Of a stretch of 64,000 nucleotides of DNA, positions 51,611-54,600 are shown piece after piece. The stretch's first letter is position 1. Each line of letters starts with the position of its first letter. The position numbers are program-made. This DNA is from a virus (lineage: Duplodnaviria > Heunggongvirae > Uroviricota > Caudoviricetes), in the IMG/VR virus record IMGVR_UViG_637000265_000001. One strand, given 5' to 3'.

Positions 51611-54600
51611 TAAGACATTCCCGCTCTTACACATCCCAGCCCTGAAAAAGGGCATCAAATTAAACCACACCTATGGTGTATAATGCCAGTCAGTTAAGCA
51701 ACTGACTGGCTCTTTTTCGGGGCTGTGGGGTATTTCCAGGGCCTCTCCTTTACCACTCTCGGGAAGGCCCTTCCCCTTCTCGTCGGTAATTTCACAAGTT
51801 GTCCCATACTTGCAAGATCGCGCATCAGCTCCGGTATACGTCCCGGTGAAGCGCCCTGCAATGTCATCAGCATTCTCATCACCATTCCGCATGATTCTGA
51901 GAAACTCAGTTGATTCGGCCAGTAACCTTTCAGATGTTCCGCCATTTTAATCATCTGATATCTCACCAGATTATAAGCCAGTAAGACACCCCACAGCTCT
52001 TGCTCCACAAGCTCCGGCTTTTTACTTCTCAGCGTCAGCCTGCTCAGTTGCATCGTCTGTTTTATCTCCCTGTATCCCAGTTCGATTTCCCAGCGATGAC
52101 TGTACAGATCCGCCATTTCTCCTCCGGGGAAGCGCATGGCGTCCGTCATCGACGTCAGCAGATGGCAGACTTTTCCTTTGCGCGTCACGGTCAGCAGGCG
52201 GGCTGTCACTTCATTTCCCAGTCCCGGCCACTTTTTTCGTGCCTGCGGGCTGGTTTTCAGCTTCACCAGATGATCGCCTTTACCCAGTTTTCTGAGCTCT
52301 TCATATTGCGCTCCCTTTCTGAGAGGTATCATCCAGTGGCGGTGTTCTCCCGCCAGGCTCCAGCCATTTAACAGTCCCAGTGAGTAATAACCTTTATCCA
52401 TTAACGTCAGAGTGTTATCGCCGGTTTGTTCTATAAGTTGCTCAGCAAGCTCATTTTCGCTGTTCTTCATCGTGCCGAAGGCTGCAGCCGTCAGCAGATG
52501 GCTGGTCAGTTCCATCTGGCAGACCATTTTGACCTGCGGGTAGAGCGCCGGGTTCCCGGCATGTGTCTGGCGGGGGAAGGCTGCATCGTTCTCTGGTGTA
52601 TCCGGTGTGCGCCAGAACACACCATCGATGGCCAGCAGGGTCAGGCCGCACCAGTGCGGATGCGGCGTGGCGTTATGCCAGAGCTGCGCTGTTTTCGTGA
52701 ACACGCGGCGGACAGCCTCACTTCCCAGGCGCTGGCGGGCCTGAATAACGGCACTGGGGGCAACGAAGGGGCGATTGCCCGGCAGCATGATGTCCAGGCG
52801 ATTCACAATCTGGTGAAGAGGTTCTTTACGCTCAAGCACCATGCCAACAATACACCAGACCATCATTTCGAGGGGAAGACGGCGCTTGCGTAGCGTTACA
52901 GTACCTGATTCGGCAAGGCAACGAGAGATGAGTTCGGGGGCGAGGTAATCCCCCAGAGAAGTCAGTGGGTTACGCAGAGAATCGTAACGGGATACCAGAT
53001 CAAGAGCCTGTCCAATGTGCATAAAAGAATCCGGAAACAAGTGAGCGTTTCCGGATTCTTACACAGCCACTGGATCGGTCAACTGATCCTTAACTGATCG
53101 GCATTACACCTATGGTGTATGCATTTATTTGCATACATTCAATCAATTGTTATCTAAGGAAATACTTACATATGCAACTTACAAGTACTCGCAAGAAAGC
53201 GAATGCAATTACAAGCAACATCCTGAATCGAATTGCTGTACGTGGTCAGCGAAAGGTTGCCGACGCGTTAGGGGTTAATGAATCGCAAATTTCGCGATGG
53301 AAAGACAGCTTCATCCCCAAAATGGGAATGCTTCTGGCTGTTCTTGAATGGGGTGTTGAAGACGAGGAGTTGGCGGAACTGGCTAAGCAAGTAGCCAGAA
53401 TGCTGACAAAAGAAAAAGCCCCGAAGAACGGCGAATTCTTCGAGGCCTAATGTAGAAAGACTGGATCAATCCACGGGAGTAATTATGACAAAACGTCGTA
53501 AGAAATACCAGGAAAAAGAAGAGATTCGACACCCTGATTCACCTGAGGGATTAGTGGTAGCCGCAGCAAATAACAGGGCGTTCGCAGAGCGCCTTGTTGG
53601 TGTTTACAGACTAGCCAAAGCAGGAGTGAAACATGGGCGTCGTTAAGTTAGCTGATTACAGGCATAACCCTGTACAACATCAGGAGGCATCCAGTATGGG
53701 GTATGTCTCTATACACCGCCAGTTTATGGACAGCAGGCTCTATAAGGACTCTCAGGCAGTACATCTTTGGCTTCACTTAATCCTCAAGGCTAATCACGAA
53801 TCTACTGTCGTCAATACGGATATCGGTCCGATAACTGTTGATCGCGGTCAGATGATAACTGGACGCCCGTCGCTGGTCAGAGAAACATTCATCCCCGACA
53901 ACAAAGTTCGGAGCTTATTACGGACTTTTGAGTCGAAAGGGATGCTTAATATTTGCTCGATGGGGAAGAAATTTAGCCTGTTTACAATCGTTAAATATGA
54001 CGATTTTCAGGCAAAAAATTGTCCAACGGTTGTCCAACGGTTGTCCATAAACAATAATATAAATAATATCTCTAATACTGACGTATTAGAGAGTGCCACA
54101 GCAGACAAAAAGTCTAACAAGAAAAAACCTTCCGTCAGCTGTCAGGATGTTGTCGATGCTTACCACGAAATCCTTCCTGAAGCGCCAAGAATCCGCGCAC
54201 TGAATGACAAGCGTAAAAACCAGATCCGAACGTTCTGGCGCAAAGCCGGAGTGATAACCCGCCAGCTTGACGGACATGGGTTCACGATGCAGGACTGGAG
54301 AAATTATTTGAGCTACGTAGGCGAAAATTGTCGATGGATGTTCGAAGAGCGTCCAAACCATCAACGCGGAACTGTCTGGCACAAAAAGGGATTTGATTTC
54401 CTGCTTAACGATAATACCTACCTGAAAGTTCGTGAGGGTGAACACGATGACCGATAATTTTTATGCGCCGCCCCATAGCATCGAGGCAGAGCAGGCGGTG
54501 ATTGGTGGATTGCTTCTGGATGATGACAGCAGTGAGCGCGTCCAGAAAGTTCTGGCGATGCTGAAGCCTGATTCATTTTACAGCCGACCACACAAAATCA

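Follow-up and report, generated by a model that had tools for sequence, protein, structure and literature searches.

IS4 in tR1 of a 434-immunity prophage arm of Shigella flexneri serotype 5: probably a leaky block and one of several lesions

Does an insertion sequence lodged between nutR and cII lock a lambdoid prophage? The question is raised by a 64,000-nucleotide stretch of a Caudoviricetes virus record (IMGVR_UViG_637000265_000001), whose full length we call the window. The preliminary description of this locus expected IS4 to render lytic replication polar or defective and so to lock a prophage that is otherwise functional. Our analysis leads us, with high confidence, to a different reading: a cut-and-paste insertion of IS4 in tR1 of a 434-immunity lambdoid arm within SHI-O of S. 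flexneri serotype 5, fixed in that lineage, which would act as a conditional and leaky block and is one of several hits to the prophage.

The identity of the element was correctly recognized. IS4 is complete at 1,426 bp (51681-53106, with the minus strand as the transposase strand), judged by length, inverted repeats and identity, and it matches E. coli copies annotated as 'IS4-like element IS4 family transposase' at 99.7% identity over 100% of the length. A near-full-length copy is present in 2,480 E. coli genomes. The IS4 subgroup is characterized by a size of 1,400-1,650 bp and an -AATR- end signature (Table 1, PMC2266710), and the element here has both the size and imperfect inverted repeats with -AATR- ends. 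These terminal repeats, at the transposase-distal end (51681-51698) and the transposase-proximal end (53089-53106), are 18 bp long (TAATGCCAGTCAGTTAAG vs TAATGCCGATCAGTTAAG) and alike at 16 of 18 positions. The transposase is encoded by a single unframeshifted and stop-free ORF, as expected of an IS4 member, which specifies 442 aa from an ATG at 53022 (51694-53022, minus strand); an alternative TTG start upstream, at 53040, would give 448 aa. Gene calls of either 442 or 448 aa were found in strains 8401 and M90T and in a JGI metagenome contig, and the protein matches the Pfam families Nterm_IS4 (2.4e-32) and DDE_Tnp_1 (1.5e-31). Compared with seven other complete copies, the element differs by 4-19 nt, with internal stops in none, and its transposase differs from annotated IS4 transposases by 3-8 residues.

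The clean 13-bp duplication that had been noted is exact. Its two copies (CACCTATGGTGTA) lie at 51668-51680 on the left and 53107-53119 on the right, and they are the only matches in the 64-kb window, even with one mismatch allowed; the chance expectation is 0.05 matches, and two copies arose in 0 of 100 shuffles. The identical flanking string is in fact 15 bp long (ACACCTATGGTGTAT, at 51667-51681 and 53106-53120), because the terminal T and A of IS4 equal the adjoining host bases. Taking IS4 at its canonical 1,426 bp leaves a duplication of 13 bp; the seven other complete IS4 copies are flanked by duplications of 11, 12 or 13 bp, which are likewise close to one helical turn. When IS4 and one repeat copy were removed in silico, the reconstruction was 99.5% identical to phage Sf6 over 1,000 bp and 99.7% identical to E. 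coli prophages, so the event was a simple insertion. The uninterrupted site is present in phages Sf6 (99.5%), HK446 and Huey, in 34 E. coli genomes (98.5-99.7% identity), and at 8 of 10 sampled loci that encode an identical cII. At the right junction, the right duplication copy together with the final A of IS4 restores the full tR1 sequence, and a terminator-like stem was flagged there (53105-53119).

As originally described, the insertion lies just past cro and nutR and before cII. According to Sf6 and phage 434 annotations carried over by homology, from which the positions of nutR, tR1, pRE and cII are taken, IS4 stands within tR1, with nutR boxB 27 nt before it and the cII ATG (53172) 65 nt after it. 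A pR-like promoter was found at 51342-51370, and cro, nutR, the IS4 site, cII, O and the helicase all follow along the plus strand, so that the insertion falls between the promoter and the distal genes of one transcription unit. The first of these genes is a 434-type cro of 71 aa (51398-51613, plus strand), assigned by homology to the phage 434 immunity region (98.9% DNA identity) and by gene calls in 8401 and M90T. Then comes an intact nutR on the plus strand, with boxA (CGCTCTTA) at 51622-51629 and boxB (GCCCTGAAAAAGGGC) at 51639-51653, identified by Sf6/434 homology and an exact boxB match; the boxB hairpin folds in RNA prediction. A boxA and a boxB placed in this way between cro and cII form a nutR-tR1 region of the lambda type. 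Beyond IS4, all on the plus strand, are an intact cII of 92 aa with a ribosome-binding site (53172-53450; Pfam Phage_CII in gene calls), whose protein is common in exactly this form (1,283 index blocks), an O-like replication initiator of 274 aa that contains the origin (53633-54457; PHROG 'replication initiation O-like', Sf6/HK542 alignment), and a DnaB-like replicative helicase of 478 aa (54447-55883; PHROG 19, Pfam DnaB and DnaB_C). Thus the proposed separation of pR, cro and nutR from cII, O and helicase by IS4 is borne out.

On the minus strand lie an intact 434-type cI repressor of 210 aa with HTH and Peptidase_S24 domains (50662-51294; domains and gene calls), equal in length in E. coli prophages with an empty site, an intact N antiterminator of 107 aa (49633-49956; translation, Pfam N36 in gene calls), and an exactly matching nutL boxB (50067-50081). 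The leftward establishment promoter pRE (53162-53190, minus strand) overlaps the cII start; it was placed by homology to the Sf6 annotation (locus L001, 4043-4071), and the phage 434 annotation puts its -35 at the same place. Overall, cI (210 aa), N (107 aa) and Q (207 aa) are all full length, and both boxB elements are exact. Live phages share 98-99.7% identity with the immunity module (cI, cro, N, both nut sites, cII, O, helicase, Q), which is intact in other respects. Between 47000 and 56500, Rfam gave no match at E <= 0.1.

Why IS4 entered at this position may be answered by its target preference. Eight independent IS4 sites exhibited a common pattern of an A-run and CC, then the 11-13 bp duplication, then GG and a T-run, with the reservation that the upstream arm of this comparison is biased, the sites having been picked for alignment to the left flank in the window. 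For the downstream arm, which is unbiased by site choice, TTTT occurred within 10 nt in 6 of 7 sites compared with a 3.3% background (P about 8e-9). The tR1 target, AAACCA-CACCTATGGTGTA-TGCATTT, fits this preference for an A-run, a near-palindrome and a T-run. IS4 is probably at tR1 because tR1 matches the preferred terminator-shaped palindrome: the element would have picked it owing to a preference for an A-run, an 11-13 bp near-palindrome and a T-run. A second IS4 at a lambdoid regulatory terminator, just downstream of cI, was found in E. coli FDAARGOS_944 (locus L032). We also considered tR1 as a recurrent IS4 hot spot in E. coli and dropped the idea, as 0 occupied sites were found in 5,426 complete genomes (one IS4 orientation).

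Polar effects of the insertion on rightward transcription were part of the preliminary claim, and terminator-like signals that face pR speak for this part. Inside the left end of IS4, a predicted terminator-like hairpin with an 11-bp stem followed by UCUUUUUCGG (51685-51720, plus strand; UCUUUUU in RNA) faces transcripts from pR. The stem is present in both the minimum-energy and the centroid folds, and the folding energy of the 66-nt segment is -23.4 kcal/mol (z = -3.6). Past this hairpin, the pR transcript would run on untranslated for 1.4 kb, in antisense to the transposase. An outward IS4 promoter into cII-O had been named as one of the observations that would overturn the claim; a consensus scan, which may miss weak hybrid promoters, found none toward cII on the plus strand, either in IS4 or at its end. 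IS4 would thus add a hairpin-U terminator at the entry of pR transcripts and then the untranslated stretch, and without N, cII, O and helicase would be essentially off.

The antitermination system bears on the other side of the claim. Elongation complexes modified by N stay processive over great distances and override terminators of both the Rho-dependent and the hairpin kind, and the rut site of tR1 overlaps nutR, RNA being released 60-90 nt downstream (PMC3526286). That release zone now falls inside IS4. Since N, nutL and nutR are intact and upstream of IS4, induction should lift the polarity at least in part. With N loading at the intact nutR just upstream, read-through would be largely kept, so that the block on pR transcripts would be conditional and is probably leaky upon induction, and would not amount to a lock. 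Sequence and general knowledge are our basis for the terminator function of the IS4 ends, for how strong the polarity would be and for how much read-through N would allow.

For leftward transcription, IS4 disconnects pRE (about 53162-53190) from cro and cI, a separation that the preliminary description had overlooked. The other IS4 end carries a predicted terminator-like hairpin with a 12-bp core stem (GAAUCCGGAAAC/GUUUCCGGAUUC) followed by UUUU (53023-53058, minus strand), which lies directly 5' of the transposase AUG and faces transcripts from pRE. Its 71-nt segment folds at -26.8 kcal/mol (z = -4.3), and a promoter-like site on the minus strand (53082-53055) overlaps its 5' arm. Leftward pRE transcripts would therefore meet a hairpin-UUUU ahead of the transposase AUG, which would cut off CII-activated synthesis of cI and anti-cro RNA. 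A phage bearing the tR1 IS4 would be impaired in establishing lysogeny.

Several other lesions were found in the same prophage. In the pL operon there is an IS1 (at 47644) with a 9-bp duplication. The O/origin region has an in-frame 66-bp deletion that leaves three of six TTGTCCAACGG iterons, at about 54020-54052 (Sf6 and HK542 alignment). This three-iteron O allele is also present on one short contig (locus L013) whose nin region is of another kind, and it may be a functional natural variant rather than a defect. The endolysin gene is frameshifted by an extra G (+1) at 60605, giving 108 aa compared with 158 aa in HK542 R, a change confirmed in 8401 and the metagenome contig only and not in M90T; with it, the lysis cassette is not that of a functional prophage. 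After the lysis genes, an IS3-family element (62377-63641) severs the late operon, and an inverted int fragment lies beyond. Neither of the two large-terminase genes in the window is intact: the SfII-like terL is 5'-truncated and present only from SfII coordinate 1931 of a gene at 617-2350, and the P22-like terL, also 5'-truncated, is without about the first 67 positions of the N-terminal domain Terminase_6N. The window thus holds neither a complete terminase nor a contiguous late operon. As for the layout tail-gtr-attP-int, a simple IS-mediated cointegrate was rejected, since the DNA left of 62377 does not match the 5' part that the SfII-like terL lacks; the layout agrees better with a putative tandem lysogen that IS elements later reshaped by deletion and inversion. 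With at least six lesions including IS4, the prophage is a remnant unable to make phage regardless of IS4. IS4 would be one among several independent inactivating hits, the others being IS1, the iteron deletion, the endolysin frameshift, the severance of the late operon and the truncated terminases. Its present phenotypic contribution would be small, at most a lower expression of O and helicase after SOS induction.

The insertion has a narrow distribution. The segment 47633-60457 of the window is identical at 12,825 of 12,825 positions to CP000266.1, from S. flexneri 5 strain 8401 (serotype 5b). Both IS4 junctions are also present in M90T (CP037923.1) and the JGI metagenome contig, and two more contigs, one in a draft assembly and one in an assembled read set, have the right junction at their ends. 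Between 8401 and M90T there are six differences in 12.8 kb, five of them inside IS4. By contrast, neither the left nor the right junction occurred among 5,426 complete E. coli genomes. Scanning the GTDB species-representative genomes for the exact junctions gave 0 matches, which says little, most likely because GTDB folds Shigella into its E. coli species, represented by one genome. The host locus is a known Shigella locus heavily scrambled by IS elements, a point that had been overlooked earlier: SHI-O of 8401 consists of gtrA-gtrB-gtrV and an SfV remnant of about 15 kb, with IS-mediated inversions around it (PMC1550401). A literature search for induction experiments on the prophage in M90T or 8401 found none.

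The alternative that survives best is that IS4 is a neutral passenger, which entered an already dead prophage without phenotype and was fixed by descent in the serotype-5 lineage. The many other lesions agree with this, as do the IS-rich Shigella genomes (6.4% of the 8401 chromosome is IS DNA; PMC1550401), the target preference, which alone accounts for the site, and the sharing of the insertion by 8401 and M90T in identical flanking DNA. Nevertheless, the immunity module is otherwise remarkably intact and close to that of live phages, which makes pR-driven expression after SOS plausible, and a tR1 insertion would alter that expression. IS4 could also have come first and been, at that time, the decisive hit. 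We consider a purely neutral passenger a real possibility, and one we would bet against.

Positive selection was weighed as well. Induction of a prophage that no longer excises would start replication in situ and kill the host, and hits that lower O/helicase expression or origin function, such as the tR1 IS4 and the iteron deletion, would then be favoured as steps of domestication. Survivors selected from trapped lambda prophages carry IS2 in P and iteron-fusing deletions in O (PMC4926192), the same two lesion classes are found in this arm, and cI, sieB and the gtr genes are kept. However, the argument is one from analogy only and concerns a single lineage, N should relieve much of the IS4 polarity, and the three-iteron allele is found in a different mosaic setting as well (L013), all of which makes such selection unlikely. 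Going further, one might speculate that lambdoid regulatory terminators are recurrent IS4 targets and that the tR1 IS4 and the iteron deletion were selected in serotype-5 Shigella to damp replication after SOS, a combination we regard as improbable. If true, it would describe a stepwise domestication that retains immunity, superinfection exclusion and O-antigen conversion in a non-excising prophage.

The lock itself, in which IS4 alone disables an otherwise functional prophage by making its replication polar, did not survive in that form, and we find it quite doubtful. It can draw on the insertion between pR/nutR and cII-O-helicase, on the hairpin-U terminator facing pR with no outward promoter in the consensus scan, and on the trapped lambda survivors, in which IS insertions and deletions lowering O/P function are selected (PMC4926192). 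Against it, the N system is intact upstream, with N-modified complexes that override such terminators (PMC3526286), and the prophage is defective in at least five other ways, with lesions in the terminase genes, the late operon (62377), the endolysin gene, half of the iterons and, by IS1, the pL operon. Last, a misassembly, for example a repeat copy put in the wrong place, is hardly conceivable: IS elements are frequent sites of such errors and most of the 8401-M90T differences lie within IS4, but three independent long assemblies contain both junctions, two more contigs contain the right one, and the exact 13-bp duplication agrees with the independently known empty site.

The preferred reading, a leaky tR1 insertion among several lesions, has a significance that is mostly one of annotation. 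The 434-immunity arm beside the gtrV serotype-conversion genes in M90T and 8401, two much-used laboratory strains, is a multi-hit remnant, with the rightward operon broken at tR1 and pRE disconnected from cI. Such an annotation would be useful when reading SOS-induced transcription, prophage-derived toxicity or IS4 activity in M90T and 8401. The locus is also a neat natural case of the IS4 preference for terminator-shaped targets. The tR1 IS4 is an ordinary, already-sequenced feature, known in kind, and it reveals no new element, mechanism or regulatory principle.

Compared with IS4 of E. coli (the type element of the IS4 family; insG), the copy here has the same 1,426 bp and 18-bp imperfect repeats, a single 442-aa DDE transposase with Nterm_IS4, an 11-13 bp target duplication and the same A-run/palindrome/T-run target shape. 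No structural differences were seen; what sets it apart is its location, found only in serotype-5 S. flexneri.

Polar IS insertions in the cro-cII-O-P operon of lambda are classical, r14 being IS1 and r32 being IS2. As in those mutants, an IS lies here between pR and the replication genes, and polarity is expected to lower the expression of O/P. In contrast to them, the element here is IS4; it sits precisely at tR1 of a naturally occurring Shigella remnant, whereas those are laboratory mutants of lambda. With nut site and N undamaged upstream, N would be expected to suppress the effect. Adhya, Gottesman and de Crombrugghe are said to have provided, in 1974, the classic proof that N overcomes polarity caused by inserted IS elements. 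Papers citing Adhya et al. 1974 describe N antiterminating into gal.

The SHI-O island of S. flexneri 5b 8401 (PMC1550401) is the same locus, 100% identical over the 12.8 kb checked. Here gtrA-gtrB-gtrV lies beside about 16 kb of SfV/SfI/SfII-like late genes with IS-mediated rearrangements, and the passages searched in that article carry no mention of the tR1 IS4 or of the state of the immunity/replication module. A parallel in the kinds of lesion is given by the replication-defective (RK-) survivors of trapped lambda from the Hayes laboratory (PMC4926192), whose lesions likewise include an IS insertion and iteron-fusing deletions in O; the deletion in the Shigella arm also runs from iteron to iteron. 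Those survivors were experimentally selected and have frameshifting deletions and IS2 within P, whereas in the Shigella arm the deletion is in-frame, the IS lies upstream of the genes, and selection is conjectural.

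The element that separates nutR from cII is an IS4 in every respect we inspected. Exactly two copies of the 13-mer CACCTATGGTGTA are found in the whole window, at 51668-51680 and 53107-53119 (0.05 copies expected by chance), and the 1,426 bp between the two copies, 51681-53106, constitute the element. Its terminal inverted repeats are 18 bp long and agree at 16 of 18 positions. Over its full length it is 99.7% identical to annotated E. coli IS4 copies, and its minus strand carries an uninterrupted 442-aa ORF with the Pfam domains Nterm_IS4 and DDE_Tnp_1; this transposase differs at 3-8 residues from those of seven further complete IS4 copies. 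The tests of IS4 membership covered size, inverted repeats, a single DDE transposase ORF, target duplication and near-identity to reference copies, and all came out positive. Strictly, the identical flanking string is 15 bp if the terminal bases of IS4 are counted, because its first T and last A happen to equal the neighboring host bases. At the canonical IS4 length the duplication is 13 bp, and the other seven copies have 11-13 bp.

To obtain the empty site, IS4 and one copy of the repeat were removed in silico and the product was used as a query. The rebuilt site was 99.5% identical to Shigella phage Sf6 over 1 kb, 98.8-99.0% identical to phages HK446 and Huey, and 98.5-99.7% identical to prophages of 34 complete E. 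coli genomes. cI, OR and cro make up an immunity region of the phage 434 type, with 98.9% identity. The positions of nutR, tR1, pRE and cII were transferred from the curated annotations of Sf6 and 434: boxA of nutR falls at 51622-51629, and boxB at 51639-51653 (also an exact sequence match). tR1 begins where IS4 has inserted, leftward pRE spans approximately 53162-53190, and cII starts with the ATG at 53172. According to these positions, IS4 therefore lies inside tR1, 27 nt beyond boxB and 65 nt ahead of cII. Downstream on the same strand follow cII, a 53-aa ORF, an O-like initiator, a DnaB-like helicase, the nin genes, Q and the lysis genes. The preliminary description had placed an IS4 with a clean 13-bp duplication between nutR and cII and the replication genes; the two exact 13-mers, the element between them with its inverted repeats and transposase, and the annotation transfer bear out both points.

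The targets of these seven further IS4 copies, all complete and from E. coli, were reconstructed. The common shape was an A-run ending in CC, a near-palindromic duplication of 11-13 bp, GG, and then a T-run. Several targets are textbook terminator hairpins, such as the one between zapB and rraA, AAAAAAGG-CACCTTGCGGTG-CCTTTTTT. The upstream target arm is biased, since the comparison sites were picked by left-flank alignment to the query; the downstream arm, which lies outside the query, contained TTTT within 10 nt in six of the seven sites, compared with a background of 3.3% (P ~8e-9). A review of the IS4 family describes the IS4 subgroup as strikingly specific in both target arms (PMC2266710). 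The tR1 sequence, AAACCA-CACCTATGGTGTA-TGCATTT, agrees with this pattern, and target preference therefore suffices to explain the location. A second instance of IS4 in a phage regulatory terminator was seen in a different lambdoid prophage, in E. coli FDAARGOS_944 (NZ_CP065613.1, 3561969-3565279), just downstream of cI, between cI and N, within the terminator-shaped palindrome AACCC-GACCTTAGTGTC-GGGTTTTC.

Positions 47633-60457 are identical at 12,825 of 12,825 nucleotides to Shigella flexneri 5 strain 8401 (CP000266.1), and by offset from these 12.8 kb of checked identity, the window corresponds to approximately 236.7-300.7 kb of the 8401 chromosome. The same pair of IS4 junctions recurs in S. 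flexneri 5a M90T (CP037923.1) and a 103-kb JGI metagenome contig. The right junction is crossed by two more contigs, from a draft assembly and an assembled read set, each starting within the right end of IS4. None of 5,426 complete E. coli genomes carries either junction. Overall, the insertion is real and fixed in a Shigella lineage, and annotated genomes that carry it have been public since 2006. Strains 8401 and M90T differ at six positions in the 12.8 kb, five within IS4 (52098, 52725, 52838, 52940 and 53027) and one within IS1 (48311), and at none in approximately 10.6 kb of unique phage DNA. Such confinement to IS elements suggests that IS copies have exchanged sequence by gene conversion or that assembled repeats contain consensus errors; separate insertions at the same site in the two strains are less likely.

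For rightward transcription from pR, a predicted terminator stands just within the left end of IS4 on the plus strand (51685-51720), an 11-bp hairpin followed by UCUUUUU. Beyond it, the RNA would be antisense to the transposase for 1.4 kb, and none of its reading frames is a credible candidate for translation. The rut site of tR1 overlaps nutR, and Rho usually frees the RNA 60-90 nt downstream (PMC3526286). This normal release zone now lies within IS4, and tR1 itself is rebuilt at the right junction through the 15-bp coincidence. Without N, strong polarity of IS4 on cII, O and the helicase would be expected. N itself is encoded by an intact gene (49633-49956, 107 aa); nutR, upstream of IS4, is intact too, and the nutL boxB is exact (50067-50081). 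Relief of IS-insertion polarity by N was reportedly first shown by Adhya et al. in 1974. N-Nus-modified complexes are processive over long range and override terminators of both the Rho-dependent and the hairpin type (PMC3526286). With N, nutL and nutR intact, such suppression leads us to expect substantial read-through of IS4 on induction, judging from the sequence. The proposed polar block to replication is accordingly supported in part: the hairpin and U-run at the IS4 entry speak for it, as does a consensus scan for an outward promoter from IS4 towards cII that found none, but the intact antitermination components speak against it.

The leftward transcript was overlooked in the preliminary description. 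pRE overlaps the start of cII, and RNA initiated there has to cross IS4 before it reaches cI. At the right end of IS4, on the minus strand (53023-53058), a 12-bp hairpin and then UUUU immediately precede the transposase AUG, and a promoter-like site (53082-53055) overlaps the 5' arm of the hairpin. This is the usual design of IS elements, in which read-in transcripts are stopped while the element's own shorter transcript escapes. Given IS4 in the path of pRE and this right-end hairpin, CII-dependent establishment of repression is probably cut off. The separation of pRE from cI is irrelevant to the resident prophage, because repression is maintained from pRM; lysogenization by any progeny would be crippled by IS4 at tR1.

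The claim that IS4 is the lock on the prophage does not hold, as many independent lesions lie in the same arm and the surrounding window. A complete IS1 of 768 bp (47644-48411), flanked by a clean 9-bp target duplication, GAAAGGGCG, separates ral from the recombination genes in the pL operon, downstream of both N and ral. The O-like replication gene (53633-54457) encodes 274 aa, compared with 296 aa in Sf6 and HK542; a 66-bp in-frame deletion has taken one of two three-iteron clusters (TTGTCCAACGG, 11 bp) and a 33-bp spacer, leaving the iterons at approximately 54020-54052. This may be a cis-acting origin defect. On the other hand, the allele could be a natural variant, because it was also found on a short contig whose nin region differs. 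The endolysin gene (60291-60768) has an additional G at 60605 relative to HK542 R, which gives a 108-aa instead of a 158-aa product; the frameshift is seen in 8401 and the metagenome contig, and a sequencing error in the 2006 assembly may still account for it. Approximately 1.1 kb past the lysis genes is a 1,265-bp IS3-family element (62377-63641, 272-aa orfB), presumably IS600-like by its size. After it, at 63642-64000, 359 bp from the 3' end of the integrase gene are repeated in inverted orientation (gene 40786-41946; other copy 40786-41144), and the true chromosomal att junction probably lies just past the right end of the window. No terminase is present within the window downstream of the IS4-bearing arm. 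Instead, an SfV/SfI/SfII-like structural block lies upstream (21761-37857, 97.6-97.9% identity), adjoining an IS cluster, and its SfII-like terL begins at SfII coordinate 1931, within the gene at 617-2350. With IS4 or without it, this locus could not credibly produce virions.

The IS cluster (19524-21760) consists of 85 bp of the same type of IS3-family element as at 62377, a 1,315-bp IS3-family element with a 296-aa orfB, and an inverted 837 bp of the first, and it joins a P22-like injection-gene end to the SfII-like terL. The middle element may be IS629-like, consistent with a reported IS629-mediated inversion around SHI-O, the serotype-conversion region. In the 8401 genome paper the present locus is SHI-O, comprising gtrA-gtrB-gtrV and approximately 15 kb of SfV remnant, and IS-mediated inversions surround it (PMC1550401). 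In a separate block of P22/Sf6-like morphogenesis genes (6871-19523), IS911 (5615-6864) truncates terL. This IS911 and the one annotated in phage SfII share 99.5% identity; the truncated large terminase (6850-7914) lacks approximately the first 67 positions of Terminase_6N. The ends of IS911 show no target duplication, and the boundary is therefore a recombination junction, not a simple insertion. The contiguous stretch 21761-41946 contains portal, head and tail genes, gtrV-gtrB-gtrA, an attP-like site and int-xis. Its order, tail-gtrV-gtrB-gtrA-attP-int, is that of a circular phage and not of a prophage, an order that the internal junction of a tandem double lysogen would show. The arrangement suggests that two phages once shared one att site here and that IS elements later deleted and inverted parts of them. 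The left end of the window (130-2286 on the minus strand, and 3303-4999) contains lysis genes of a third phage remnant in the opposite orientation, namely an Rz-like gene (636-1118) and a lysozyme gene (1100-1633), and two ORFs, one of 405 aa with no family match and one of 151 aa matching only DUF6971.

We conclude that the element is an ordinary IS4 insertion within a known, IS-riddled Shigella prophage remnant. This explanation covers the identity of the element and its cis effects, and not all of its rivals are mutually exclusive with it. That IS4 is a neutral passenger is the most tenable of them, a real if minority possibility: its target preference accounts for the site. It is unlikely that IS4 is one of several selected hits damping in-situ replication of a trapped prophage. 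An analogy is offered by laboratory lambda survivors, which bear IS2 in P and deletions in O that fuse iterons (PMC4926192); the O allele here may be natural variation. Still more doubtful is the original proposal of IS4 as the decisive hit, to which the polarity expected without N lends some support and the other lesions do not. An assembly artefact is excluded, as independent assemblies carry the junctions. The preliminary observation is confirmed, and its interpretation is supported in part: polarity is expected without N, but the lock does not hold.

As a target, the nutR-tR1 region is of the standard lambda type. In lambda, r14 and r32 are classical polar IS insertions in the cro-cII-O-P operon. 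IS4 at tR1 resembles them, with reduced expression here a prediction from sequence.
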